Shown one piece after another: positions 2,733 to 61,781 of a stretch of DNA of 64,000 nucleotides; the stretch's first letter is position 1; the number at the start of each line of letters is the position of its first letter. A program made the position numbers and the translations under genes. Origin of the DNA: Patescibacteria group bacterium (GTDB lineage: Bacteria > Patescibacteriota > Patescibacteriia > Patescibacteriales > UBA12465); NCBI GenBank assembly GCA_041649315.1, contig JBAZNJ010000001.1, positions 133,869-197,868 of the forward strand. The letters are read 5' to 3'. The notes beneath the pieces were generated by a model that saw only the letters and a program-made list of their open reading frames with translations, ran no database searches and was not told where the DNA came from.

Positions 2733-4067
2733 ATGTCCAAAAAAACCCGTGATTTAATCTTCATATTCTTCATTATTTTTTTCGTGCTCGGCACGATTTT
2801 TACGTCGCTTTACGCTTCCGGTTATAAATTCAATTTAAGCTGGCCTTTGAAATTTAACCGCCTCCTGATAAAAACCGGAATGATTAATCTTGATACCAAT
2901 CCGCGCGGCGCGATTATCTATCTTAATGGCGAAACTAAAAACGCCTCGCCGATAATATCTTTTAAAAAAACTGAACTGACTACGCCGGCTAAAATTCGTA
3001 ATGTCCTGCCGGGTGAATACAATCTAGTATTGAGGCGTGAGGGCTATCAGCCGTTTGAGAAAAAAATAAGCGTCCATTCCGGCCAAACGACTTTTTTGGA
3101 AGACGTTAATCTTTTCCGCGATGAACTGCCGTTATTTATCGCCGCCGCTCCGGATGGTGATTTAAAAATAAGCGCCGAACGAAATTATCTATATCTGCCG
3201 GCCAGCGGCCAAATCATAAACCTCAAAACCGGACGCGCGGTCGAGTTGGAAAATGAAAAGCTGACGGGGCCGGGCGAATGGCTGCTTGAAGATGAAAAAT
3301 TATTAAACGACGGGCGCTTGTTTGACTTAGAAAAAAATAGTGTAGCCGATTACGCCGCCCTCATCGGAGCTGAAGCTGATAAATGGTATTATGACGAAAA
3401 TAACGACCGCCTTTATTACCGCTTTAAAAATTCTTTGGCCTATCTGAACCTCGGCCAAAAAACCGTCATGACTATCGTTTCCGGAGAAAAATATTCAAGC
3501 TACGAACCGCGGAATAACGAAATATTTTTTGTAGCTCTTAATGCCACCGGCCGGACGAAAATAAAAAAATATTCCCTTACAGACGGAAAAATCATACAGG
3601 AAGCGGAGCTCCCGGGCGTGGCTGACTACCGCTTTATCCGCGATCAACAAAAATCCCTGACACTTTACGACGGACAAAATAAAACTTTATATTTAATAAA
3701 TCCAGATAATCTCAGCGATATTAAAACGATTAAAAACGCCGCTTCGTGGGCCTGGATAGATGATAAAAATCTATTCTATAATAATAGCTGGGAAATCCAT
3801 TCTTTTAATCTTGAAAAAAATTCCTCCTCGCTTGTCACTCGGGTCGGTGAAGAAATAAACCAAATTATCTGGAATAAAAATAAAGATTATTTAATATTCT
3901 CCAGCAACTGGAGCTTGAACGCTCTGGATTTAAAAAATAATATCGCGACTACAATTTTTCGGACCGGAAAAATTACCTCTCCGGTACTTGATGGAAAAAA
4001 TAATATTCTATATTTTTGGGCGCACGTCGGCCAACAAGAAGGAATTTATAAATTAATACTGCAATAG
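2733..4067 (+). CDS. Membrane-anchored PEGA-domain protein with long beta-rich ectodomain
   Basis: 444-aa ORF. N-terminal TM helix LIFIFFIIFFVLGTIFTSLYA. PEGA-like segment PRGAIIYLNGE...LPGEYNLVLRREGYQPFEKKISVHSGQTTFL. Confidence 0.7.
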   Translation: MSKKTRDLIFIFFIIFFVLGTIFTSLYASGYKFNLSWPLKFNRLLIKTGMINLDTNPRGAIIYLNGETKNASPIISFKKTELTTPAKIRNVLPGEYNLVLRREGYQPFEKKISVHSGQTTFLEDVNLFRDELPLFIAAAPDGDLKISAERNYLYLPASGQIINLKTGRAVELENEKLTGPGEWLLEDEKLLNDGRLFDLEKNSVADYAALIGAEADKWYYDENNDRLYYRFKNSLAYLNLGQKTVMTIVSGEKYSSYEPRNNEIFFVALNATGRTKIKKYSLTDGKIIQEAELPGVADYRFIRDQQKSLTLYDGQNKTLYLINPDNLSDIKTIKNAASWAWIDDKNLFYNNSWEIHSFNLEKNSSSLVTRVGEEINQIIWNKNKDYLIFSSNWSLNALDLKNNIATTIFRTGKITSPVLDGKNNILYFWAHVGQQEGIYKLILQ

Positions 4068-4103
4068 AAATTGAAAAAATAAGCCTCAAGAAAATTGATA
4101 ATT

Positions 4104-4132
4104 AAAAAAGGGTCGCTGATGCGGCCCTTTTT
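4104..4132. terminator. Bidirectional intrinsic terminator (PEGA gene / galU)
   Basis: AAAAAA, then GGGTCGC (4110-4116), loop TGAT, GCGGCCC (4121-4127), then TTTTT. One G-U pair. Lies between convergent genes. Confidence 0.65.
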
Positions 4133-4155
4133 AATTTCTTCATCTTTCAAGCTCG

Positions 4156-5079
4156 CTACTTCCCTAACTCTTTTATCAACTTTTTCAAATCTTCGCCAAT
4201 CTCCTTATCTTTCAGGCCCAACTTCAAGGTCGCCTTAATAAAATTAAATTTATTCCCCGTGTCTAACCATTCACCCTCTATCTTCTTACCATAAAGTGGC
4301 TGACCTTGCTGTAATAATTCATCAAAGGCATCGGCTAGGCGAATCTCGCCGGACTTGCCGGAACGCATCCCGTTTAAAATATTAAAAACCGGCGGCGTGA
4401 TTACATATATTCCGACAGCTGCTAAATTAGACGGCGCCGCGCTGACCGTCGGCTTCTCTACGATCCTTTTTATTTCATAAGCGCCATCGCCCAAATCCAC
4501 GCCGTCAATCACTCCGAATTTATCAACTTCATTTTTATCCACGGCGGAAAGGCCGACGACCGGATCGCCATACTTTTCGTAAACATCCATTATCTGCTTA
4601 ACCGGCGAAATCGGCGCGTCATAAAGAGTGTCGCCGAACATTACCAATACCGGTTCGTCCTCGGCAATAAGATGCGCCGCACAACTGATTGCCTGGCCGT
4701 CGCCGAGTGGAATCGGCTGACGGACATAGGAAAAACGCGCCAAGTTTTCAATTTCCTTAACTTTTTTTACTAAATCTAATTTATTTTTCTCTACTAAGGT
4801 CTTTTCCAATTCAAAAGAATAATCAAAATGGTCCTCAATCGCCCGTTTGCCCCGGCCAGTGACGAAAATTATTTCTTCAATGCCAGCAGCTACCGCCTCT
4901 TCCACTAAATACTGGATTACCGGTTTATCAACGATCATCAGCATTTCTTTGGGCTGGGCCTTAGTCGCGGGCAAAAAACGCGTTCCAAAACCGGCGACCG
5001 GCAAAATTGCCTTTTTAATTTTCGGCCTAACGTTATTTTTTAATGTCTTGCTCTGTAACATATATTTTTTATTTATCAT
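4156..5079 (-). CDS. galU: UTP-glucose-1-phosphate uridylyltransferase
   Basis: 307-aa ORF with KAILPVAGFGTRFLPATKAQPKEMLMIVDKPVIQYLVEEA, the typical GalU nucleotidyltransferase signature. Confidence 0.9.
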   Translation of the reverse strand: MINKKYMLQSKTLKNNVRPKIKKAILPVAGFGTRFLPATKAQPKEMLMIVDKPVIQYLVEEAVAAGIEEIIFVTGRGKRAIEDHFDYSFELEKTLVEKNKLDLVKKVKEIENLARFSYVRQPIPLGDGQAISCAAHLIAEDEPVLVMFGDTLYDAPISPVKQIMDVYEKYGDPVVGLSAVDKNEVDKFGVIDGVDLGDGAYEIKRIVEKPTVSAAPSNLAAVGIYVITPPVFNILNGMRSGKSGEIRLADAFDELLQQGQPLYGKKIEGEWLDTGNKFNFIKATLKLGLKDKEIGEDLKKLIKELGK

Positions 5080-6133: not shown

Positions 6134-7189
6134 CCTTACTAAACGCCAATATATATTCATCAAGGGGTTGGCGATATACTTTAATATCGGATTGGAAATT
6201 TCCTGGAACATAATCCGTCCCTCAAAATCACGGGCAATTTCTTCAAACGGCACCGTACTAAAACTCTTTAGCCGCGCCCGCTCCTTAGCAATCATATCAT
6301 AAGTCCGGCGTTTAAAAAAATAACTATAAATCTTAATTTCTTCCTTAAACCAGCCGCCTAAAAGCGCATAAAATAACATTCCTAAATCTAAAAAAAAGAG
6401 CGGTAAAAAAATCCAAGCCAGAAAACGATAAGGGTAAAAAATAAGCAGAGTCAGATAGCGATTCCGTTCCATGTAATAAATCATCTTAGTACTGCGTTTG
6501 AATTCATATTTATGATAAACGACCGCCCGCGGCGCCAAAATAATCTTATAACCGGCTAATTTCACTTTTAAACTCAACTCTGAATCATCATGATACATGT
6601 AAAATTCTTCATTATAACCGCCAACTTGCTCAAAAACTTCTCGGCGGATAATAAAGGCACAACCGCTGGCATAACCCTTGATTTCCGGATAACCGAAAAT
6701 TTCTTTATCCGGCGCGCCATAATCGGACGTAAAACCAAAGCCGAGATAATGAATAATATTACCTAAACTATTTATTTTTGGTCGGGATTTTCCTGTCTCA
6801 TCTTTCGGATATAAAAGAATTTTCGCCTGAGCGATTCCGGCGGACGGATTATTATCTAAAGCTTTTACTAATTCTTTTAACCATTGCGACGCCAATTCCG
6901 TGTCCATATTAAGCGTCACCAAATATTCACAGCCGTCTTTAATCACTTCTTTAAAACCAAGGTTATTAGCGGCGGCATAATTTCCGTCCGGCCGCGGCAA
7001 AACCGTCGCTTCCGGATAACTATTTTTTAAATAAGTAAGCGATTCCGGCGTCGAAGCGTTATCAATAATATAAATCCGTGTTTGCTCGACCGGATAATCC
7101 TGAGCGCGCAAAGAATCGCGGCAAGGCGCTAAAAAACGCTCAGCATAATCTTTATAATTAACTAAAATTATTCCGACTTTTTTTATCAT
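6122..7189 (-). CDS. Family 2 glycosyltransferase with C-terminal TM helices
   Basis: 355-aa ORF. VGIILVNYKDY, IIDNAST, TLNMDTE and YHDDSELSLK motifs. Hydrophobic segments FLAWIFLPLFFLDLGMLFYALLGGWF. Confidence 0.85.
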   Translation of the reverse strand: MIKKVGIILVNYKDYAERFLAPCRDSLRAQDYPVEQTRIYIIDNASTPESLTYLKNSYPEATVLPRPDGNYAAANNLGFKEVIKDGCEYLVTLNMDTELASQWLKELVKALDNNPSAGIAQAKILLYPKDETGKSRPKINSLGNIIHYLGFGFTSDYGAPDKEIFGYPEIKGYASGCAFIIRREVFEQVGGYNEEFYMYHDDSELSLKVKLAGYKIILAPRAVVYHKYEFKRSTKMIYYMERNRYLTLLIFYPYRFLAWIFLPLFFLDLGMLFYALLGGWFKEEIKIYSYFFKRRTYDMIAKERARLKSFSTVPFEEIARDFEGRIMFQEISNPILKYIANPLMNIYWRLVRLFV

Positions 7190-7208
7190 AAAAACAAAAA
7201 AATATTTT

Positions 7209-8042
7209 TTATACCAAAATCCTAATAATCCCCCAAACTATTTTTAAAATAAAATATTCCCACTTCTTCCCCCATTTCTGAAAATATTTTAACATTGATT
7301 CTCTAAAATATTTTTGGGTCTGACCGCGTTTAACCTGGTTAAAACTCGCGCCAACGTAATCAAGACACTCAGCCGCCGGCGTATACCAGACCTCGCCGCC
7401 TAATTCATATACCTGACGGCAAAAATCAACTTCTTCAAACCAAATAAAATATCTTTCATCGAGCAACGGCTGCTCCGAGCCGCTAATTTTTTTATAATTC
7501 TCGCGATTGATTAAAAAAAACGCGCCGCGGATAGAATCAACCTTGGCCGCCTTAGAATAATCAAAATCCGCCATTAAATATTTATTAACCGCGGACGGGA
7601 TCAAATGCGGCACTTTTAAAGTAATTAATAGCTGATTCAAAAATTTAGGGAAACGGCGGGCCTGTCTGACAGTTTTGCCTTTTTCATTGACTAAGCGACA
7701 TCCGGTAACCGTGGCCGCCGGATTTTCCTTGGCCCAATTTAAAATATTTCCCAAAGTATCCGGTCGCACACGCATATCCGGATTAAGGAGAAGGATAAAT
7801 TCCCCGGTGGCCTGCCTGATTGCTTGATTATTCGCCTTGGCAAAACCGAAATTATCTTCATTCGCTATTAGACGAACCGTCGGAAATTCATCACGCACCA
7901 TCGCTACGCTTCCATCGGCCGAAGCATTATCAACCACAAAAACTTCAAATTTAAAATCACCCGACGAAGCGAATAAGGCCCGTAGATTTTCTCTTAATTT
8001 ATCTTTGACATTCCAAGAAACGATGATTATCGATAGATCCAT
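7209..8042 (-). CDS. Family 2 glycosyltransferase
   Basis: 277-aa ORF. LSIIIVSWNVKD, VVDNASADGS, LLLNPDMRV and FEEVDFC motifs. Confidence 0.85.
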   Translation of the reverse strand: MDLSIIIVSWNVKDKLRENLRALFASSGDFKFEVFVVDNASADGSVAMVRDEFPTVRLIANEDNFGFAKANNQAIRQATGEFILLLNPDMRVRPDTLGNILNWAKENPAATVTGCRLVNEKGKTVRQARRFPKFLNQLLITLKVPHLIPSAVNKYLMADFDYSKAAKVDSIRGAFFLINRENYKKISGSEQPLLDERYFIWFEEVDFCRQVYELGGEVWYTPAAECLDYVGASFNQVKRGQTQKYFRESMLKYFQKWGKKWEYFILKIVWGIIRILV

Positions 8043-40494: not shown

Positions 40495-43400
40495 TTACCG
40501 CTGATGAATTTCTATTTGTCCGGCGGATGAAAAACTTTTAAGGTCGGCGATTTTAACTGACTGGATCAACGCCGATTCGGCAATATACTTGCCCGGCTGG
40601 CTGATGCGCGCGAAATAGCTAAAATAATCCTTTTGGCAACGGGGGTCCTTATTCCAATTTTTATCAACGATGAATTTAACTTTCTGGCCGGAAACTTCAT
40701 AAGGATAGCGGATACCGCAATCAGCTTCAAGGCCATAACGATAAGTATTACTTATTAATTTTAAGCCGCTCGGTAAAATATCAGTAATTTCATAAAGTCC
40801 GTCCGGCGCCGTGCCAGAAAATCGCGATTTAATCCGAACTTCGACGATATCGCCTTCCTGAAAATCATTACTCAACTTCCCTTTATTCCAATAACTCCGT
40901 TCTAAACCGACTTCCTGGCTCTGTTTAGTTAAATCGGCTCTAGCGTCATAATCGCTAACCGCCGCTATCTGGCCGCTGATTACTTTTATTTCTAAGGTCG
41001 GCAACTGTTCGGGGCCGACCAGAAATTGAAAGGATTCGCCGCGTCCTAACGTTTTATTAATTTCTTGATTAGCAATCTTAAGGGAAAATTCAGCCTTACC
41101 GGACGGAATATTTGGAATCATTAATCGTAAATATAAGAGCTGTTCCAAATTACCAAGAATATCCGTCGGACGATTATCAACCACATAATTTCGGAAATTC
41201 TCTGCGCGATCATCGTCCAGCCCAGCCGCCAAGATAGCGGCTAAGACCGTGGCTAAAAAATTATCATCGTTATTTTTATCATTTATCTTAAGCCGCGAAT
41301 ACGCGTTAAATTTTTCGCCGTAAGCGGCTAACAATTCATCATATATCTTTTGCGCCAATTGATTATCGCCGATAAGCCGCGCGCCTAAAGCTAAATACAA
41401 TTTATCCAAAGGCCCAAGATCGGACAAGCGACTAAATTCGCGTAAAGAAATAAGCACCGGCTCATTAAGCGCGGCTAAACCGGACAAGGCCAAAGCTAAT
41501 TCATCGCGATTGGCGTCCCGATTATTATAAACACTATATAAATACCCGGCTAAAGCCTGGCTATCAAAGGCCTCCGGTTTAGCCATGGCTGCTAAAACAG
41601 AAATTCTTAAATCCGCGTCGGAATAAGGCAATAATGAGATGCCACCGGTCGCAGTCTGATATATTTTTAAGTCCGCGTCCGTTGGTTCGGTCGCGGCGCT
41701 AAAATATTCGTTCATTAAATCGGTCGCGATAAGCGCTGATAATTTCTGGTCAACTCGCGCCCCGTAGCCATGGCTTAAACCGAGCAATTCCGAATAATAG
41801 CGACCCCGATTATTATCCATCAGCGTAATCGTTGTCCAGCTATCCTCCGCGCCGGCAATCTTATCGCCGGTTTTAATTTCCGAAACGATCTGATGCCGTT
41901 CACTTAGTCGCGAATCAATAACGCTAATTTCATTAACAACGGTATCTTGATTATTTTGGGAAGCGGCGCCAATTTTTAATTTATAGGTCCCCGCGCTTAC
42001 TCGATTTAAGTTAAAATAAATCGGACGGAAAGCTTTCGCTTCCTGATCAACCCGTGCCGCGCCGAGCGCCGGCGCTTCAAGATAAGCCTGTATTTTATCC
42101 GCGGCAACCAAGTCATCGCCGTAAGCCGTCGCCTTAATTATCGGTTCATCGCCGGCCAAATATTGCTTGGATAAATTAGTCTCGACGAAAAATGGCAAAG
42201 TCGCTTTAAGCTGCGTTTTAGCAACGCCGGCTTCTAAGTCGCCGGAAATGCCCTGGACGCTCATCTGCCAAGAAGTAATATTGTCGGGCAGTTGGAATTT
42301 AACCGTCGCCCGGCCGCTCTGATCAGTTTCGACTTGAGTAAACAAAGCTAAATCCGGGAAATAAGAACGCTCTCCGCTCCCGCCGCCGCCTCTTTCCGCA
42401 CCGCCGCCTAATAGAACGTTCTTATGGGAATATTTACTAAAGAGATGGCCACTACTCAGTGCCCGATATAAACCGCTTAAAGGATCGGACTCGGGAATTC
42501 CACCTAAAGGTGCAAGGGCTAGATCAACGGCGCTAACATTAATACGGGCTCGGACATCTCGCCCCGCTTGATCTTTAACGGAAATATTCAAAGTCGCCTC
42601 ATCGCCGGGACGATACTCGTCCTTATCGGTCTTAATGGCGATATCTAACTTACGCTTCTCCTGATTAAAAAAGGCGCTAAACCCATTATCAGCATGATAA
42701 GTCCGCCCGTCAAACCAAGTGGCGACAACGTAAATATTCGGTATATCGTCGGCCGCATAATTAAAGCTAAATTTAGAACTATCGCTCACCTGATAATCAC
42801 GCAGACCATTTTGCAAACGTAAATATAAGAAACGACCGGCATCAGTAATTGTTTCCGTGCCATACCTTTTAACTTCAAGCTTAACCTTCTCATCAATATC
42901 ATAACTTTTCTTATACGGCGTTTCTTCAACCAGGTTATAGTAATCGAAGCGCGGATCATTTATCGACTGGGAAGCGTTAAAATATAAATTATCATTCGTT
43001 ATGTTATTATATTGATCGCCGGCCAGCAATTTTATTTCATAATAATATTTTGGATCAACGTCAAACACTAAACTACCGGTACCATCCGCGCCGGTGGCGA
43101 AAGATCGATCGGGCAAGGCCGTCTTTTTCTGATCGTAACGATAAATCGGATAAGAAACCTTATTAATGAAATCGTAATAAGTCCCGGTCTGACGTGGAAT
43201 ATATTCTATGGCCGTAATCTTAACAGTTACTACTTTGCCCGCCGCCGGCGCGCCATTCCAGTCATCCTCTGCTTTATTTAAATCAACATTAAACAATTCT
43301 GTTTTGATTTGGACTTTATTTTCTTGCCCAACCCGGTTAATACTCGCGTTATCAAAACGGATTCGCGTCCGGAAAACGCGAACATCGGCACTGCCGTAAA

Positions 43401-45639
43401 CCTCGCCGGCTTCGGATAATTTCGGTTTAACCGTTAATTCGTCTCGGCAAGTATCCCCACAAGAATCACCGCTACAAGAACAGGATGTCGTATATTTTAA
43501 ATTAACCGTGCCATTGCCATCCGTGGCCGCCATCTGGCCGTCCGAGACTGTTGGTGAATCACTGCTTTTATTATTATGTACAATCTCTAAATCATGGTTG
43601 ACTAAAGGCGTCCCCTCGAAAAAACTGGTTTTAATTTCGTAATTAACGCTATCTCCGGCAAAAACCGCTTGAGCACTCGGGGCTACTTTTATCTGATAGG
43701 CCGGCTTGATGTAATCTTGGACTATAATATAGCGGCCGGAATAAAGCTCCTTGTCATCAAGCCGAATATCAACCCGGTAATTGCGCGGGATTAAATTATT
43801 AAATTTCAAGCTGCCGATAAAAAACCCCTGGCTGTCAATTTTTGCTTTCTGTTCCACGACGATTATCGGCTCCTGATAAATATCCCAAAAACTATCATTG
43901 ACTAAGCGAACCGTGACTTCCTTATCGGCCGTGGCTACGACATCAGATCGCGACCGAACAAAACCCCAAAAATTTATTTCATCGGTCGGCTGGTATAAAT
44001 CGCGGTCGGTATATAAATAACTCCAATAATTATCCGGGTTGTTCGCGCCATCCGAACGATAATCCGGCGGAACGCTCACCACCAAATTCTTTCCGGCCGC
44101 TTCGATCAAAAATAGAGAAGTTTTCTCATCTTGATAATCAAATTTTAGAACGGCAACGCCACTGGCGTCGGCCGAAGCGCTAGTCTTAGTTCCTAAATTA
44201 CTAACTTTAGCCGGAGATTTTTTATCCAATCCGATGTCGTTAATCCAAAACAGTACCTCGTCGTTAATGACTGTCGTATAGGCGGAAACATCGCTCACCT
44301 GAACGAAAATCCAGCTATGATTATCGCCGATGGCCGCTTCGACCAGGTAGAAACCAGCCGGCAAGCGATTAGGCAAAACCAGATAATTTCCCCGATCATT
44401 ACTGGCCAGGGGCAGATTATAAGTGGCGGCTAAAGACAAACCGGAATAATTTATTTCCGCGCAACGACGAGCGCTGGCAGCCCAGCTCGGAATCTCGTAA
44501 TATTTTTCCAAAGCGGCCGTGAAAGCGTCTAAGCTCTGATAATTATAAACTTTAACAGCGGCTAATTGCTCTGCTTGTTTATTGCGGGCATAAACAGAAA
44601 AAGCCGGATTTTGTTCGGTGGCAAACTCAACTAAATCATCGGCAAAATTTATAGTCGTTGCCGGCGCTTCTTCTTCCCGGACTTCAAATTGAAAACGATA
44701 AGCTTCCGATAAATTTTCACCGGTCGCTAAATCGTTAACCGACGGCGCGACCGTTACAGTATAAAGCGTTCCGGGATTAAGCGACTGTTTCGGAACGAAA
44801 ACCATGGTCTGCCGGTGTTTCTCAAAAGCCCCTTCAACCGCCGGAGTAATATTAAAAGCCGTCTCAAAACCGGTAAAATTTTCCGTACTAAAATTTATCT
44901 CAATGCCGGTATTGGCCAGCGCGCTTGTCCGATCGGCCGGAAGCGAGCCGGTAATTTTAAATTTATTTTTTACCTGAAAGGCCCAAGAATAAAGATGATC
45001 GACCGTTAGGCCTTGATCGTTAACATAGGCGGAAGCGATAGTCAGGCGATAAACGACTTTATCCACTAACCCGTCTTTAGGAATTAATCTAAATTCGTAT
45101 TCATTAACCGCCGTTAAATCAAACTCCGTCGCCGGCGACAATTTAATATTAGCGCGCAGAGAATCAAGATCTTTAATCGCGGTTTTACTCTTAATAACAA
45201 AATGGGTATTGGCTTCAACGCCAAATTCACCCCCGGCCGTCGCTTCAACGGAAAAATTATCGCGCGCGTAGGCGGTCTCGACCGTAAACGGCGAAAATCC
45301 GCTTTGCGGCCAAAACTTAACCGCCGTGATAATAACGGCAAGTATCACCACTAAAGCCAGGGCCGGCGCTAAACGACGGACATTAAAGCGGGAAAACCAG
45401 GCCTCCCAGATTTTTGCAATTTTATCTTTCATAGAAAAAGTTTTGGCTTGGCGTCGCGCTAAAATTTCCATCCGCAAGCGGTCTTGGAAATCAACAGTCG
45501 GCGCTAAGTCCTTAGAAACGGAGCTCTTAATCTTGTCTCCTGCTTCTAATAACGCCGAAATCTCCGGATCATTACACTCCGACGGCGCTTGTCCGGCGGC
45601 TAAAGCGGCGGCTAATAATTTTGCTTTTTCTTTATTCAT
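40495..45639 (-). CDS. Anti-sigma-like N-terminus + TM + alpha-2-macroglobulin-like giant ectodomain (no thioester motif)
   Basis: Start taken at ATG 45639 (MNKEKAKLL), overlapping the sigma gene stop by 8 nt. TM LAPALALVVILAVIITAV. A2M hallmarks YTDRDLYQPTDEINFWGFV, DKDEYRPGDEATLNISV...VSAVDLAL and FPDLALFTQVETDQSGRATVKFQLPDNITSWQMSV. HGYGARVDQ stands where CGEQ is expected. Confidence 0.8.
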   Translation of the reverse strand: MNKEKAKLLAAALAAGQAPSECNDPEISALLEAGDKIKSSVSKDLAPTVDFQDRLRMEILARRQAKTFSMKDKIAKIWEAWFSRFNVRRLAPALALVVILAVIITAVKFWPQSGFSPFTVETAYARDNFSVEATAGGEFGVEANTHFVIKSKTAIKDLDSLRANIKLSPATEFDLTAVNEYEFRLIPKDGLVDKVVYRLTIASAYVNDQGLTVDHLYSWAFQVKNKFKITGSLPADRTSALANTGIEINFSTENFTGFETAFNITPAVEGAFEKHRQTMVFVPKQSLNPGTLYTVTVAPSVNDLATGENLSEAYRFQFEVREEEAPATTINFADDLVEFATEQNPAFSVYARNKQAEQLAAVKVYNYQSLDAFTAALEKYYEIPSWAASARRCAEINYSGLSLAATYNLPLASNDRGNYLVLPNRLPAGFYLVEAAIGDNHSWIFVQVSDVSAYTTVINDEVLFWINDIGLDKKSPAKVSNLGTKTSASADASGVAVLKFDYQDEKTSLFLIEAAGKNLVVSVPPDYRSDGANNPDNYWSYLYTDRDLYQPTDEINFWGFVRSRSDVVATADKEVTVRLVNDSFWDIYQEPIIVVEQKAKIDSQGFFIGSLKFNNLIPRNYRVDIRLDDKELYSGRYIIVQDYIKPAYQIKVAPSAQAVFAGDSVNYEIKTSFFEGTPLVNHDLEIVHNNKSSDSPTVSDGQMAATDGNGTVNLKYTTSCSCSGDSCGDTCRDELTVKPKLSEAGEVYGSADVRVFRTRIRFDNASINRVGQENKVQIKTELFNVDLNKAEDDWNGAPAAGKVVTVKITAIEYIPRQTGTYYDFINKVSYPIYRYDQKKTALPDRSFATGADGTGSLVFDVDPKYYYEIKLLAGDQYNNITNDNLYFNASQSINDPRFDYYNLVEETPYKKSYDIDEKVKLEVKRYGTETITDAGRFLYLRLQNGLRDYQVSDSSKFSFNYAADDIPNIYVVATWFDGRTYHADNGFSAFFNQEKRKLDIAIKTDKDEYRPGDEATLNISVKDQAGRDVRARINVSAVDLALAPLGGIPESDPLSGLYRALSSGHLFSKYSHKNVLLGGGAERGGGGSGERSYFPDLALFTQVETDQSGRATVKFQLPDNITSWQMSVQGISGDLEAGVAKTQLKATLPFFVETNLSKQYLAGDEPIIKATAYGDDLVAADKIQAYLEAPALGAARVDQEAKAFRPIYFNLNRVSAGTYKLKIGAASQNNQDTVVNEISVIDSRLSERHQIVSEIKTGDKIAGAEDSWTTITLMDNNRGRYYSELLGLSHGYGARVDQKLSALIATDLMNEYFSAATEPTDADLKIYQTATGGISLLPYSDADLRISVLAAMAKPEAFDSQALAGYLYSVYNNRDANRDELALALSGLAALNEPVLISLREFSRLSDLGPLDKLYLALGARLIGDNQLAQKIYDELLAAYGEKFNAYSRLKINDKNNDDNFLATVLAAILAAGLDDDRAENFRNYVVDNRPTDILGNLEQLLYLRLMIPNIPSGKAEFSLKIANQEINKTLGRGESFQFLVGPEQLPTLEIKVISGQIAAVSDYDARADLTKQSQEVGLERSYWNKGKLSNDFQEGDIVEVRIKSRFSGTAPDGLYEITDILPSGLKLISNTYRYGLEADCGIRYPYEVSGQKVKFIVDKNWNKDPRCQKDYFSYFARISQPGKYIAESALIQSVKIADLKSFSSAGQIEIHQR

Positions 45640-46201
45640 ATTTTTGATAGATTGCTCGAAAACGCTTAAGCGCGCGAAAAAGCCAAACTCCGACATTGTT
45701 CGGCTTAATGCCCAGGGATTGCGCGATTTCAATATTATCCAATTCGGCAAAAAATTTAAGCTGTAAAATCTGTTGATCGCGTGACGACAAACTGGCCATA
45801 GTTTTTTCTACAATAGCCCGATTAAGCGAGCGGATTGAATCGGCCTGCGGATCTTGGCATTCATCGCTCGGCTCAGTAATATTTTCAATGTTAACCGTCG
45901 CGCGCCGACCCTGACCGCGATAATAATCGATCAATTTATTATTAGCAATTCGATAAAGCCAAGCGGCGAAAGAATAATCGTTCTTCGGCCGAAAAGTCCT
46001 AAGATTCGTAAAAACTTTTAAAAAAATAGCGGAAACAATATCTTCCGCCGCTTCTTTTTGCCCGACCCGCTTTATAATAAAAAAATATATCTTCGGGAAA
46101 TAAAAATCATACAAGACCGCGAAAGAACGGTCATCGGTTTTAGCTTGTTCCACGATCATGTTTTCGTTTATTAATTTATCCGACAAAATTTGGCCTTCCA
46201 T
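45632..46201 (-). CDS. ECF-type sigma-70 family RNA polymerase sigma factor
   Basis: 189-aa ORF. Region 2 AAEDIVSAIFLKVF...FAAWLYRIANNKLIDYYRG and region 4 LSSRDQQILQLKFFAELDNIEIAQSLGIKPNNVGVWLFRALKRF. Confidence 0.9.
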   Translation of the reverse strand: MEGQILSDKLINENMIVEQAKTDDRSFAVLYDFYFPKIYFFIIKRVGQKEAAEDIVSAIFLKVFTNLRTFRPKNDYSFAAWLYRIANNKLIDYYRGQGRRATVNIENITEPSDECQDPQADSIRSLNRAIVEKTMASLSSRDQQILQLKFFAELDNIEIAQSLGIKPNNVGVWLFRALKRFRAIYQKYE

Positions 46202-55223: not shown

Positions 55224-55733
55224 TCATTCCGTCTCAACAAACCCCGCTCGCTCCCGATATATTAAATAATTCTGATATTGCCCCGGACTCAAAAGTTGTT
55301 CCGTTTTAAAACCCTGACTGGCGCGATAAATTATGGAATAATTACGAGGCGAATAATTATTGATAAAACAATCGGAAATTAAATGAACGAAACCGGCCGC
55401 AGCCAAACTTATTAAAAAAATCGCGACTTTTTTCTTTTGGCGAACTAAATAGGCAATGATTAAAAGTATGGGGACCAGCTCCCAGGCATGAAAAAAAAGA
55501 TAAGTTCGCTCACTGGCTAAAAATTGGTAGCCGTTAAAAAATTCCGTAAAACTAAAACGCAAGCCAAAAGTTAAAAAATATTCCAAGACATGATCTAAAT
55601 CAATCAAGCATCCGCCCATTATCCCAGCAATAACCCCCAGCCGCATATTCTTAAAATATCGGCCGCAGAAATAACCGGTTAAAACCGCGACTATGAAATG
55701 GAGTGATAAATGAAGCGCTAAAGGCATAAGCAA
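55224..55733 (-). CDS. Membrane protein, YdjM/DUF457-like putative metal-dependent hydrolase
   Basis: 169-aa ORF with 4-5 TM segments and His/Asp motifs DLDHVLEY, HAWE, HLISD. Confidence 0.45.
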   Translation of the reverse strand: MLMPLALHLSLHFIVAVLTGYFCGRYFKNMRLGVIAGIMGGCLIDLDHVLEYFLTFGLRFSFTEFFNGYQFLASERTYLFFHAWELVPILLIIAYLVRQKKKVAIFLISLAAAGFVHLISDCFINNYSPRNYSIIYRASQGFKTEQLLSPGQYQNYLIYRERAGFVETE

Positions 55734-57889: not shown

Positions 57890-58028
57890 AGTTAAATATA
57901 TCTTATCGCGGATTAAGGGGAAAAGCAAATTAGGGATTTAACGGAAAAACAAGCATTAACCATAAAACATTGGCTCCCTTATAGCCGAAAACTCCAATTT
58001 CAGCCCCGACAATCATTCTTTATTTTTT

Positions 58029-58057
58029 CTTTAGAAAAACTTTAACTTTTTTTCAGG
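58029..58057 (+). promoter_or_regulatory. Box A: operator-like 29-mer with an 11-bp-phased direct repeat
   Basis: CTTTAGAAAAACTTTAACTTTTTTTCAGG. Half-sites CTTTAG / CTTTAA are 11 bp apart. TATAAT at 58068-58073. Confidence 0.45.
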
Positions 58058-58107
58058 GGAAATAATTTATAATGGAGAATGAAGATAAAAAATAAAAAAA
58101 TAAAAAC

Positions 58108-58278
58108 ATGAGCTTAAGCAAAACCTGCAAAAAACATCGTTGTTTAAAAACCGGGGTCTGCCGCCATAAAACCTGGCTCGGCAACCTGGCGCTCTGCCGA
58201 ATCGGGGATAAGCAGTGTCCTTACTGCTCGCCGACTCCGTTCGGACGCTACGAACCGGAAGATATTCTCCTGCCTTAG
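58108..58278 (+). CDS. Candidate 56-codon Cys-rich basic peptide ORF
   Basis: MSLSKTCKKHRCLKTGVCRHKTWLGNLALCRIGDKQCPYCSPTPFGRYEPEDILLP, 6 Cys. GC-richer than the AT-rich flanks. A-rich leader with no SD. Below the ORF-track cutoff. Confidence 0.35.
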   Translation: MSLSKTCKKHRCLKTGVCRHKTWLGNLALCRIGDKQCPYCSPTPFGRYEPEDILLP

Positions 58279-58300: not shown

Positions 58301-58336
58301 TGATCCGCCCCTCGCTATTAAGCCGGGGGCGGGTCA
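58301..58336 (+). terminator. GC-rich hairpin between the peptide ORF and the regulator gene (terminator/attenuator candidate)
   Basis: TGATCCGCCCC (58301-58311) pairs with GGGGCGGGTCA (58326-58336): 11 bp with one G-U, 14-nt loop, followed by ATTTATATTTTA. Confidence 0.45.
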
Positions 58337-59145: not shown

Positions 59146-59230
59146 ATAATTTCCGATCTAGCAGCCATGCGAACCAGCCAAAATTTTTTATCTCATTACA
59201 CATTCCCGTTAAATATCCGATAAAAATTAT

Positions 59231-59259
59231 CTTTAGAAAAATCTTAACTTTTCTTCAGG
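59231..59259 (+). promoter_or_regulatory. Box B: second copy of the 29-mer (26/29 identical to box A)
   Basis: CTTTAGAAAAATCTTAACTTTTCTTCAGG, 86 nt after the regulator stop codon. Confidence 0.45.
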
Positions 59260-59350
59260 CCGCCTTTGCTAAGATAAAGGCGGCGGCAAATTCCTCGAGC
59301 GGAATTAGAAAAGTCGATGTTGCCTTACTCTAGTTCTAAATTTTTGCTCT

Positions 59351-59464
59351 ATGTTGAAAAGTAATCAAAATTCATCTCGGACGAAGAGTCACAAAGAAAA
59401 TCAGGCCTTATTGGCGATGATTTTAGCAACTGCTCTTAATCCTGGAACTCCCTGGCGCAGTTAA
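59351..59464 (+). CDS. Candidate 37-codon leader ORF
   Basis: MLKSNQNSSRTKSHKENQALLAMILATALNPGTPWRS. The stop is 6 nt before the terminator stem. No SD. May be non-coding leader RNA instead. Confidence 0.2.
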   Translation: MLKSNQNSSRTKSHKENQALLAMILATALNPGTPWRS

Positions 59465-59470
59465 AAAGAA

Positions 59471-59505
59471 AAAACACTTCTTCCTTAGAAGAAGTGTTTT
59501 GTTTT
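59471..59505 (+). terminator. Strong intrinsic terminator 10 nt upstream of the kinase start codon
   Basis: AAAACACTTCTTC-CTTA-GAAGAAGTGTTTT, a stem of about 13 bp, followed by GTTTT. Confidence 0.75.
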
Positions 59506-59514
59506 ATCATAAAT

Positions 59515-60939
59515 ATGAAAAATCTCGTTAAAAATCTAATCCGACCCTTAAGCCGAGACGAAGATCTTAGGCAACAAGAACTTATCCTTAATATTCTGCT
59601 TGGCCTGTCAATTTTTTGCTTCACGATTTTAAACCTAATCCGTTTGAAAGATGTTTTAGCCGGCGTCGGAGATATCGGAATGCCGATTACCTATACTTTG
59701 CTGATTCTGCTATTTTTTATTTTTTTGCTTTGGCTTTCTAAAAAGGGCCGGATAAAAACCGCAGCTTGGCTCCTAATTATCACTTATTCCCTACCGATGT
59801 TCTATTCTTTTATCGCCTGGGGAGGAGATCTGCCGGCCGCCTTGCTGTTAGCGGTTTTGATTATCGCTTTATGCGGCATTCTAATCGGCCAGCGTTTTGT
59901 ACTTATTGCCACGGCCGCGATTAACTTATTTTTAATCGGACTGACTTATTTGCATAACCGAGGATTAATGGCGATTGATAATTCCTGGCGCGAAGGCCGG
60001 CATGAAATCGCTGACGCTATCGCCTACGCCGTAATCTTCCTAGTTATCGCCGGTGTCTGCTGGTTATTTTGCCGCGGGTTGAATCATGCCCTAAAACGGG
60101 CGCGGCAAAGCGAAAAAGCCTTAAAACAAGAACGCGATCTTTTAGAAATCAAGATTATTGAACGGACACAGGAATTACGCCAAGCCGAAGAAAAAAAAAT
60201 AAACCAACTGCATCGCGTCGCCGAATTCGGCCGGCTCTCTTCGGGGATTTTCCATGACTTAGTTAACCCTCTAACCGCGCTCTCGCTTAATCTTGAACAA
60301 ATAAAAAATGGCGAAGATAATAAAATAGGTGATAGTAAATCTTATTTAAGCCAAGCGCTTTTGGCAACACGAAAAATGTCCGATTTAATCGTTAGCATTA
60401 AAAGCCAGATCAAAGCCGACGGGAATCAGAAAGAATTTTCCGTTAACGAAGAAATAAAACAAATAATTCAAATTTTATCTTATAAAGCGCGGCAAGCGAA
60501 TATCCACCTGGATTTCCCCGCGACGCCGGAATACTGCCTCTACGGCGATCCGGTTAAGTTCGGCCAGATTATAAGTAACTTAATAAGCAACGCGATTGAA
60601 GCCAGTAACCCCGGCCAAACCGTAAAAATCAATCTGGAAAAACAAAGCGATTATCTTAAACTTAAAGTGAGTGATCATGGCCGCGGCATTGCTCCGGACG
60701 ACCTCCCGAAAATATTTGATTCATTTTTCAGCACCAAGAAAAACGAAGGGCAAAATTTAGGCATCGGCTTGGCTTCGGTTAAAAATATCTTAGCAAAAAA
60801 TTTCCAAGGAAAAATCTCGGTTATAAGCAAACTTGGACAAGGCAGTGAATTTTCTTTATTATTTCCCTTGCAAGTCGCGAGAAATGATAAATTAAAAAAT
60901 CAAACCGAAGAACAAGCCCTAATTAAAAAATGCCTTTAG
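59515..60939 (+). CDS. Sensor histidine kinase with a multi-TM membrane sensor
   Basis: ATG at 59515 (MKNLVKNL) preferred over the GTG at 59494 inside the terminator stem. About 6 TM helices, H-box SSGIFHDLVNPLTAL, N-box LISNAIEA, G-boxes DHGRGI and GIGLASV. Confidence 0.9.
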   Translation: MKNLVKNLIRPLSRDEDLRQQELILNILLGLSIFCFTILNLIRLKDVLAGVGDIGMPITYTLLILLFFIFLLWLSKKGRIKTAAWLLIITYSLPMFYSFIAWGGDLPAALLLAVLIIALCGILIGQRFVLIATAAINLFLIGLTYLHNRGLMAIDNSWREGRHEIADAIAYAVIFLVIAGVCWLFCRGLNHALKRARQSEKALKQERDLLEIKIIERTQELRQAEEKKINQLHRVAEFGRLSSGIFHDLVNPLTALSLNLEQIKNGEDNKIGDSKSYLSQALLATRKMSDLIVSIKSQIKADGNQKEFSVNEEIKQIIQILSYKARQANIHLDFPATPEYCLYGDPVKFGQIISNLISNAIEASNPGQTVKINLEKQSDYLKLKVSDHGRGIAPDDLPKIFDSFFSTKKNEGQNLGIGLASVKNILAKNFQGKISVISKLGQGSEFSLLFPLQVARNDKLKNQTEEQALIKKCL

Positions 60940-61781
60940 AAAAACCTTATTTCTGGCCGGAATGGTTCGCGGCCGGATTAAACGCGAGCGAAAAGAAAAA
61001 AATAAACCCTGAACTGATCTTAAAACTTAATCGCGCCAATCTCTATTTATGGCGCGCCTTGAATATTTATGACGATTTTCTAGATGGCACGGGGCAGGCA
61101 GCGCGCCTGCCTATAGCCAACCGCTATTATCGTCATTTTTTGGAAAGCTATTATCGATTAAATTTAAAAAGTGATTTTTATCGCTTATTAAATAAGATCT
61201 TAAATGACTTAGACGCGGCAAACCGCGCCGAAGCCGCGCTTGAAAAAATAAAAACAAAAAACGGAAAAATAATCATTCCCTCTCGCCTGCCACTTTTTGA
61301 ACCGTTAAGCTTATCCCGAAAATCCTTGGCGCTCGGTCTTGGCCCAATCGCCCTGCTCTCTACTCTCGGCTATCCGGCAAAAAGCGAAAAAATAAAAAAC
61401 ACTCTTAAATTTTTTCGCGCCGCTTTAGCCGCAAAACAATTAGCCGATGACGCGGCTGATTGGTTTGAGGACCTAAAAAACGGCGCTTTAAGCGCCGCCA
61501 ATGTTCTTGTTTTAAGAGCGGCGAAACGAGACGGCCTAACTCTTAAACCGGAAAGCGAACCGGAAATTCTATATCTCTTATTCGCGACCAAGGCCTCCGG
61601 CAAATTAGCCGCCGATATCAGCCGCTTATGTCGCCGCGCTCGCGCCCTAGCGGACACAATCGGACTGCGCACTAATAATCGCTTATTAAGAGAAATAATT
61701 TTGCCCTTAGAAGATGCCATAAAAGAAAGCGAGAGATTTAGGAAAGAGTTTTTTGGGGATGATATTTCTATCCCCTGTTGA
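60930..61781 (+). CDS. Isoprenoid (polyprenyl/terpene) synthase-like protein with two DDxxD motifs
   Basis: 283-aa all-alpha ORF. Its ATG overlaps the kinase stop by 10 nt. LNIYDDFLD (D48-D52, nt 61071-61085) and KQLADDAADWFEDL (D173-D177, nt 61446-61460). Confidence 0.5.
   Translation: MPLEKPYFWPEWFAAGLNASEKKKINPELILKLNRANLYLWRALNIYDDFLDGTGQAARLPIANRYYRHFLESYYRLNLKSDFYRLLNKILNDLDAANRAEAALEKIKTKNGKIIIPSRLPLFEPLSLSRKSLALGLGPIALLSTLGYPAKSEKIKNTLKFFRAALAAKQLADDAADWFEDLKNGALSAANVLVLRAAKRDGLTLKPESEPEILYLLFATKASGKLAADISRLCRRARALADTIGLRTNNRLLREIILPLEDAIKESERFRKEFFGDDISIPC

Follow-up and report, generated by a model that had tools for sequence, protein, structure and literature searches.

A conserved kinase-linked gene cassette of Patescibacteria encoding a candidate ComQ-like peptide prenyltransferase

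A 64,000-nt stretch of the genome of a Patescibacteria group bacterium (assembly GCA_041649315.1, contig JBAZNJ010000001.1, nt 133,869–197,868; hereafter the window) carries a small cassette that specifies an OmpR-type response regulator, a short peptide with a Trp close to its C-terminus, a membrane-bound sensor histidine kinase and a 283-aa enzyme with the fold of trans-isoprenyl diphosphate synthases (IPPS). The coordinates of these and other features are collected in Table 1. By analogy with a known system, the cassette is, on balance, best read as a variant of ComQXPA that is common in Patescibacteria, in which a ComQ-like enzyme would prenylate the Trp of the peptide and a kinase with six transmembrane helices would sense the product. 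ComQ and its homologue StheQ belong to the IPPS superfamily, and each prenylates a peptide encoded next to it (ComX and StheX, respectively), which is short and has the target Trp close to its C-terminus; in Bacillus, the genes for the membrane kinase ComP and the regulator ComA lie in the same locus (bioRxiv 10.64898/2026.08.29.745113).

The enzyme is specified by an open reading frame (ORF) that overlaps the kinase gene by 10 nt, the sequence ATGCCTTTAG (nt 60,930–60,939) holding both the ATG of the enzyme and the TAG stop codon of the kinase. Two Asp-rich motifs are present, LNIYDDFLD at residues 44–52 and AKQLADDAADWFEDL at residues 168–182, with D48 and D173 spaced 125 residues apart. An earlier note on this DNA had described the product as a prenyl-synthase-like protein with two DDxxD motifs, translationally coupled to a kinase. 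The overlap was confirmed from the sequence and the motif spacing from the ORF translation, and the upstream gene is a genuine kinase (HATPase_c, E 5e-26). By our own rough estimate, two DDxxD motifs would be found by chance in well under 1 in 100 proteins of 283 aa; their conservation is the stronger evidence. A word-indexed search returned 144 relatives, of which all those with a named organism come from Patescibacteria or Falkowbacteria, and one carries the NCBI name ‘class 1 isoprenoid biosynthesis enzyme’. In an alignment of 49 sequences (40–84% identity to the query) the Asp motifs, whose conservation in homologues the earlier note had singled out for checking, proved to be invariant at D48, D49, D52, D173, D174 and D181, as did Q170. 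The other invariant positions are W9, P10, W41, N45, Y47, L60, N64, Y75, E101, K131, S132, L135 and P259, while R68, K169 and D177 are nearly so.

An AlphaFold2 model built on the 49-sequence alignment (pLDDT 94.1, pTM 0.90) is all-helical but for one short hairpin, and places both DDxxD motifs at the C-terminal ends of long helices (H27–51 and H153–176). When this model was compared with the PDB using Foldseek, the best 50 matches were all trans-prenyltransferases or prenyltransferase domains (hexaprenyl, geranylgeranyl, farnesyl and solanesyl diphosphate synthases). The best was 3aqb_B (E 2e-5), template modelling scores across the matches were 0.6–0.67, and no terpene cyclase was found among the 50. 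The isoprenoid-synthase alpha-bundle suspected in the earlier note is thus borne out, with trans-prenyltransferases as the closest structures. Ranks 3, 5 and 8 were taken by Ord1 (PDB 9V4G-J), an all-alpha-helical indole prenyltransferase related to ComQ (PMC12510300). Searches by sequence gave a very different picture: the window enzyme has no Pfam match and no NCBIfam match at E ≤ 1, and searches of the PDB sequences with the enzyme and with the family profile matched only designed repeat proteins, Ord1 not being recovered by the profile. A single one of the 49 homologues matches PF00348 (polyprenyl_synt), at E 0.18. Neither IspA of E. coli nor a nine-sequence IPPS alignment (IspA, IspB and seven homologues from plasmids) gave a significant in-register match in hhalign, which paired the first motif of the enzyme with the second motif of the IPPS.

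The active site was compared by merging the enzyme and IPPS alignments in MAFFT, an anchored alignment and not a structural superposition. Four elements come into register: the first Asp-rich motif (FARM), the KT dipeptide (K131–S132 in the window enzyme), Q170 as the Gln at position −3 of the second motif, and the Asp, Gly and Thr of the region after that motif. No conserved basic residues in the enzyme family correspond to the RRG after FARM, to the Lys of GKxT or to the N-terminal GGKRxR, and the family also shows a 12-residue deletion after the second motif. An invariant aromatic stretch, YFWPxWF, seems to occupy roughly the place of GGKRxRP. With both Asp-rich motifs, the KT-like Lys and the Gln ahead of the second motif retained, the site for the allylic diphosphate and Mg looks intact. 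The basic residues that bind isopentenyl diphosphate (IPP) appear to be lost, and because of this the enzyme is probably not an elongator of prenyl chains.

The kinship of Ord1, an indole prenyltransferase, with ComQ prompted an examination of the gap between the regulator and kinase genes. It holds an ORF for a 37-aa peptide with a basic N-terminus, a hydrophobic middle and a Trp third from the end, the last residues being PWRS. Corresponding ORFs occur in 32 distinct loci of stand-alone enzymes, i.e., those that consist of this domain only, as in the window. Counted from ATG they are 26–57 codons long (mostly 27–37) and specify a variable, Lys-rich N-terminus, a hydrophobic middle and an invariant NPG(T/I)PWR(D/N/S/Y) followed directly by the stop codon; one additional pair of loci has NAGIPWRY. 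The third codon positions vary freely beneath the invariant residues, with four Pro, four Gly, four Arg and two Asn codons in use, and the ORFs end in any of the three stop codons. Since synonymous positions are free to vary, the peptide is under selection as a protein and not as an RNA or DNA element. The exact 37-aa sequence is absent from a collection of 15 billion proteins, so the peptide has gone unannotated in this genome; one orthologue has been deposited as a hypothetical protein. By analogy with ComX, the 37-aa peptide is proposed to be the substrate of the enzyme.

The kinase has Pfam matches to HATPase_c_5 (E 1.3e-7) and HisKA (E 2.4e-4) in addition to HATPase_c, and its transmembrane helices were judged by eye from the sequence. 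Its listed start, GTG at nt 59,494, lies under the 13-bp hairpin that follows the peptide gene, and the gene is called as 474 aa in an identical contig, so that ATG at nt 59,515 is most likely the true start. The same gene order, HrcA, YdjM-like and PBP2 (−), then regulator, kinase and enzyme (+), was found in five contigs identified by exact or close protein identity and in 39 species-representative loci. Joint occurrence with this kinase family, which the earlier note had proposed to examine, is very strong. The kinase gene lies directly upstream of the enzyme gene in 36 of the 39 stand-alone loci, most commonly with the kinase stop and enzyme start overlapping or abutting (offsets mostly −11, −8, −4, +1 and +2), and in every assessable locus of the fused relatives described below. 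Prenylation of the tail of the kinase itself (KKCL in the window) was considered as well, and rejected because conservation of the C-terminal Cys does not extend to the orthologues.

When 1.84 billion representative proteins were searched exhaustively with the profile, 1,461 matches were obtained (approximately 1,460 clusters at 50% identity). Many of them are about 650 aa long and carry the enzyme domain at residues 370–645. A second search recovered 873 such fused proteins from Parcubacteria, Paceibacteria and Microgenomates, one of them named ‘terpene cyclase/mutase family protein’. Within the first 330 residues of these proteins the motifs PYPDDLDDT and EGGPYxTW are invariant. The profile of the fused family matches AsDMS, a bacterial drimenol synthase, in its class II cyclase domain (9mhs, hmmsearch E 1.8e-13), the alignment running through the catalytic PDDLDTT. 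In the AlphaFold2 model of one member (pLDDT 92), domain 1 matched AsDMS (Foldseek E 2.7e-10), small cyclases of the squalene-hopene type, MstE and SsDMS, while domain 2 matched geranylgeranyl and farnesyl diphosphate synthases (GGPPS, FPPS), including IspA of E. coli (1rqi). No separate class II cyclase gene was found near the stand-alone enzymes, either in the window or in 44 loci. Some fused proteins also carry a precomputed match to PF28380, which may be a recent family covering one of their domains.

The neighbourhood of the fused genes was surveyed in 83 loci, 80 from metagenomes and three in long contigs. In the three long contigs the kinase ahead of the fused gene is an orthologue of the window kinase along its entire length, from the transmembrane region onwards (37–40% identity), and an OmpR-type regulator is nearby. 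All 76 loci that include upstream sequence have a kinase gene immediately before the fused gene, and a regulator was found in 58 of the 83. PBP2, HrcA and PurB are absent from all 83, which makes the adjacency to PBP2 in the stand-alone clade a case of lineage-specific synteny and leaves regulator, kinase and enzyme as the conserved module. A link to the cell wall through the divergent PBP2 gene was also entertained and then dropped, PBP2 and HrcA being syntenic in the stand-alone clade only.

A Trp-tailed ORF with an ATG start, mostly of 34–41 codons, lies between regulator and kinase in 49 of the 57 fused loci that have both. Here the leader is conserved (MKxLIKKILTDKKxRN...L.AF) and the tail is hypervariable, e.g., GTPWQN, EPWQD, APWSGLD, NPWTDVA or HPWCC, with the Trp 2–7 residues from the end and preceded by Pro in 36 of the 49. 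Precursors of modified peptides are usually built in this way, from a conserved leader and a variable core, and these ORFs fit that pattern. The tails GTPWQN (fused clade) and GTPWRN (stand-alone clade) appear, by their likeness, to link the two groups of peptides.

Genes for the supply of prenyl diphosphates adjoin some of the fused genes. In 16 of the 83 loci a canonical IspA/IspB-like gene stands within ~2.5 kb, usually as the next gene downstream of the fused one, and a canonical polyprenyl synthase is the commonest downstream neighbour (12 of 66 loci). One locus, L109, has a fusion of a NUDIX (IDI-like) domain with polyprenyl_synt (nt 6435–8021 (+); PF00348, E 3.5e-57). The presence of canonical synthases next to the fused genes indicates that the module uses prenyl diphosphates and that the enzyme domain is not itself the elongating synthase. 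L109 and 15 other fused loci have the appearance of a compact terpenoid gene cluster in Patescibacteria. In another, L045, an RVT_1 reverse transcriptase (nt 3337–4712) adjoins a bAvd-like gene, a pairing suggestive of a diversity-generating retroelement. The same locus has a phage-type integrase a few kb upstream of its fused gene, and the kinase there seems to be frameshifted (two tblastn pieces).

Two copies of a 30-nt box were found in the window, box 1 preceding a Cys-rich 56-aa ORF and box 2 preceding the peptide gene, and each contains a direct repeat with a period of 11 bp. The 17-mer core of the box occurs only twice in the 64-kb window, both strands considered. Variants with up to three mismatches are present in the same intergenic regions of approximately 10 related loci, compared with 1.5% of background windows. 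The boxes are candidate binding sites for the OmpR-type regulator, and the putative promoter P2, at box 2, would serve the peptide, kinase and enzyme genes. In their placement, the boxes look like the site of an OmpR-family activator in place of a −35 element. Between box 2 and the peptide ORF there is also a GC-rich inverted repeat, GCCGCCTTT ... AAAGGCGGC (nt 59,259–59,285), which overlaps the putative −10 hexamer. A stable hairpin within 55 nt 3′ of the peptide stop codon was detected in 30 of 32 stand-alone loci (mean z −5.5), the structure being conserved and the sequence not; a hairpin follows the peptide stop in only 10 of 46 fused loci. It could be a leaky terminator that sets a high ratio of peptide to enzyme.

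The cassette resembles ComQXPA of Bacillus and StheQ/StheX of Sphaerobacter thermophilus in several respects. The enzyme is an all-alpha member of the trans-IPPS superfamily, predicted here to lack IPP condensation. As in ComQ and StheQ, the diphosphate would be held by a first DDxxD, a Lys, and a Gln that precedes the second motif by one helical turn. A short precursor peptide with a Trp 2–3 residues from its C-terminus is encoded beside the enzyme, and a multi-pass membrane histidine kinase and a response regulator are found in the same locus, as in ComQXPA. The order of genes differs, being regulator-peptide-kinase-enzyme in place of Q-X-P-A, and the regulator is of the OmpR type, unlike ComA, which is a NarL-type regulator. 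Other differences from ComQXPA are the phylum (Patescibacteria), the 474-aa kinase with about six transmembrane helices, the invariant peptide core, and the extra class II cyclase domain of most relatives. The comparison with ComQ and StheQ was made with descriptions of these enzymes and not with their sequences; sequence similarity was not detectable with Ord1, Pfam or NCBIfam. The cassette was not filed in the ComQ family, as it lacks the pseudo-SARM (the degenerate second Asp-rich motif) by which ComQ and StheQ are marked. It is best regarded, by analogy, as a ComQXPA-like system on a separate branch of the IPPS superfamily. Full-text literature searches returned no paper that ties terpene synthases, ComQ or ComQXPA to Patescibacteria or the candidate phyla radiation (CPR).

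With ordinary trans-IPPS (FPPS, GGPPS and hexaprenyl diphosphate synthase (HexPPS); PF00348) the enzyme shares the fold (Foldseek E 2e-5 to 1e-3), the two DDxxD motifs about 125 residues apart, the KT-like pair and the Gln at −3. It differs from them in an N-terminus shorter by approximately 40 residues, in the absence of RRG, GGKRxR and the GK Lys, and in having no PF00348 match. Ord1 is among the best structural matches (E 2.1e-4), has the IPPS fold and prenylates an indole instead of IPP; identity in the structural alignment is, however, 13–16%, and the Foldseek scores of Ord1 are no better than those of ordinary IPPS. Drimentine biosynthesis offers a chemical precedent for prenylation followed by cyclisation, with a class I-fold prenyltransferase that farnesylates Trp-containing diketopiperazines before a cyclase forms the drimane. 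The closest known enzymes to the fused relatives are the HAD-TCbeta drimenol synthase AsDMS (PDB 9MHS, 9M7D), the class II cyclase MstE and the fungal chimeric class II cyclase-prenyltransferase diterpene synthases. The N-terminal domain of the fused relatives is homologous to the cyclase domain of AsDMS (PDDLDTT in AsDMS, PYPDDLDDT here), and like the fungal chimeras they have the cyclase first and a prenyltransferase-fold domain after it (Mitsuhashi et al. 2017, cited in PMC12324236). They differ in the partner, an IPPS-like domain here, a HAD phosphatase in AsDMS and a canonical GGPP synthase in the fungal chimeras, in having a single beta-type barrel, and in that their genes always stand behind a kinase gene and a gene for a Trp-tailed peptide. 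The window enzyme, unlike these relatives, has no cyclase domain.

In the proposed mechanism, the enzyme would bind geranyl or farnesyl diphosphate (FPP) via Mg held by the two Asp motifs, K131 and Q170, and would move the prenyl group from the diphosphate to the indole of the conserved peptide Trp. The resulting lipopeptide, possibly without its basic and hydrophobic N-terminal part, would reach the membrane or the outside of the cell, where the kinase, which lacks an extracytoplasmic domain, would detect it in or at the membrane. The phosphorylated regulator would then bind both 30-nt boxes and raise transcription of the peptide, kinase and enzyme genes, giving positive feedback. In the fused enzymes, cyclisation of the prenyl chain would fall to the cyclase domain. 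A wider proposal, advanced more tentatively, is that lipopeptide signalling of this kind extends across the CPR: a peptide of ~36 aa might be prenylated on Trp by a previously unrecognised IPPS branch and read by a dedicated kinase with six transmembrane helices, and in most lineages a fused drimenyl-type cyclase, sometimes with an IDI-IPPS gene of its own, might place a cyclised terpene on the Trp.

Several observations weigh against peptide prenylation. Similarity in sequence to Ord1 or to any IPPS was undetectable by profile searches and by hhalign, and the loss of the IPP-binding residues is read from the MAFFT anchor alignment. The enzyme has a full second DDxxD(xxxD) (D173, D174, D177, D181), whereas ComQ and StheQ have the pseudo-SARM NDxxx, which binds no metal. 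The peptide core is invariant across the stand-alone clade, unlike the polymorphic ComX pherotypes, and would also suit a ribosome-arrest leader ahead of the hairpin. Three stand-alone loci (L010, L024 and L028) keep an enzyme with intact motifs beside PBP2 (at ~8000 in each) with no regulator, kinase or peptide nearby. No exporter or leader peptidase was identified, and IspA, IspB, UppS and Dxr, as sources of prenyl diphosphates, were not found in the window or in the stand-alone loci. Most Parcubacteria are without the mevalonate and methylerythritol phosphate pathways; most Microgenomates have the mevalonate pathway, which few Parcubacteria do, and the methylerythritol phosphate pathway is sparse in the CPR (PMC6107057).

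Some of these points would be explained by an output enzyme that acts on free prenyl diphosphates, such as a terpene synthase derived from IPPS or a diphosphatase that changes the membrane isoprenoids, with the kinase sensing the membrane as DesK does and the small ORF acting as an arrest leader or as a small membrane protein that modulates the kinase. This is unlikely, yet the intact metal-binding motifs together with an apparently absent IPP site are compatible with it, D173, D177 and D181 (at i, i+4 and i+8) have by our reading the spacing of the NSE/DTE triad of terpene synthases, the fused partner is homologous to class II cyclases that form drimenyl diphosphate and act on FPP itself, and the enzyme persists in the three loci without peptide or kinase. 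The lack of any bona fide terpene cyclase among the best 50 structural matches counts against a terpene synthase, and the invariant Gln at −3 and the KS pair are features of IPPS and ComQ and not of terpene synthases. The small ORF is laid out like an attenuator in the stand-alone clade, where the invariant C-terminus is followed within ~6–10 nt by a terminator hairpin in 30 of 32 loci; in the fused clade, however, the leader is conserved, the tail is hypervariable save for the Trp and the hairpin is mostly absent, as befits the precursor of a modified peptide and not an arrest peptide.

The earlier note had offered two further views of the protein, a pseudo-enzyme serving as a kinase accessory and a truncated isoprenoid synthase, and neither fares well. 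An inactive or ligand-sensing accessory that binds a prenyl diphosphate (e.g., the FPP or undecaprenyl diphosphate pool) and relays this by protein–protein contact would account for the start/stop overlap, which implies coupled translation and fixed stoichiometry, for the nearly universal pairing of enzyme and kinase genes, and for the position of the cassette next to PBP2 in the stand-alone clade. It is nevertheless quite improbable, as the catalytic Asp, Lys and Gln, including all the metal-binding Asp, are invariant over 40–84% identity, the gene is retained with intact motifs in the three loci where the kinase is absent, PBP2 adjacency is lineage-specific (none of 83 fused loci), and the fusion to a cyclase with an intact DxDDT, together with the neighbouring IPPS genes, points to metabolism. 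Least probable is a divergent but ordinary short-chain synthase that makes FPP or GGPP for the cell, e.g., for undecaprenyl phosphate. HexPPS, GGPPS and FPPS are the best structural matches, the two DDxxD have the canonical spacing along with Gln −3 and a KT-like KS pair, and a canonical IspA or IspB was not seen in the window. PF00348 is unmatched even at E 1, apart from the one homologue mentioned above, and the basic motifs RRG, GGKRxR and GK have no counterpart in the MAFFT merge. The canonical PF00348 synthases that stand as separate genes beside the fused relatives would make the enzyme redundant, and the linkage to kinase and peptide would be left unexplained. The missing PF00348 match, the lack of the basic motifs and the separate canonical synthases also argue against a truncated canonical synthase. 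The suggestion of the earlier note that the protein makes a prenyl compound linked to the signalling pathway comes close to the conclusion reached here, but it overlooked the Trp-tailed mini-ORF, which shifts the reading to a ComQ-like peptide prenyltransferase.

Table 1. Features of the cassette and its upstream region (positions in the 64-kb window).
Feature	Position (nt)	Strand	Remarks
30-nt box 1, TCTTTAGAAAAACTTTAACTTTTTTTCAGG; CTTTA-N6-CTTTA direct repeat, 11-bp period	58028..58057	+	40 nt upstream of TATAAT (58068–58073); candidate promoter P1
Cys-rich small protein, 56 aa (CxxHxC...C...C...CxxC...P[YF]GRYEPED[IV]LLP); hypothetical protein WC545_00965	58108..58278	+	Optional member of the locus
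OmpR-family response regulator, 225 aa	58468..59145	+	Response_reg, E 2.3e-28; Trans_reg_C, E 5e-27
30-nt box 2, 27/30 identical to box 1	59230..59259	+	40 nt upstream of TAAGAT (59270–59275); candidate promoter P2
Putative precursor-peptide gene, 37 aa, MLKSNQNSSRTKSHKENQALLAMILATALNPGTPWRS	59351..59464	+	In the ~350-bp gap between regulator and kinase; start codon uncertain
13-bp hairpin and T-run, directly after the peptide stop	59471..59500	+	Putative intrinsic terminator or attenuator between peptide gene and kinase
Sensor histidine kinase, 474 aa; ~6 closely set transmembrane helices, no extracytoplasmic domain, then DHp and HATPase	59515..60939	+	Pfam
Flagged enzyme, 283 aa; DDFLD 48–52, K131–S132, K169–Q170, DDAADWFED 173–181	60930..61781	+	Trans-IPPS fold

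Upstream of the regulator, the Cys-rich small protein is kept in 11 of 31 distinct loci, at 54–60 aa and between PBP2 and the regulator. It has no Pfam match; a zinc-ribbon protein is one possibility, and a second product of the regulon another. A GC-rich hairpin (nt 58,303–58,336) lies 3′ of its ORF. A His-rich membrane protein of 169 aa (nt 55,224–55,733 (−)), with a weak match to YdjM (E 1e-4), lies between HrcA and PBP2 throughout the stand-alone clade. Further away in the window there is a very long ORF of 1751 aa (nt 40,495–45,750 (−)).

The CPR or Patescibacteria make up a large share of bacterial diversity and have tiny genomes with few regulators, and to our knowledge hardly any cell–cell signalling has been described in them. 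A module of regulator, peptide, kinase and prenyl enzyme represented by ~1,460 clusters would be one of the few conserved signalling circuits of the CPR, and the key gene of the cassette, that of the 37-aa precursor, had escaped annotation in this genome. We know of reports of ComQ-type peptide prenylation only from Firmicutes and one Chloroflexi bacterium; if the interpretation given here is correct, it would extend to Patescibacteria, by way of an enzyme branch with a complete second metal site. Nor do we know of a ribosomal peptide described as carrying a cyclised terpene on Trp, and the cyclase fusions would, if they act as proposed, point to peptide-terpenoid hybrids and to new enzymes for lipopeptide engineering. 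For the organisms themselves, the cassette would represent a rare peptide pheromone system in ultra-small episymbionts, one that could mediate communication among CPR cells or between CPR cells and their hosts.

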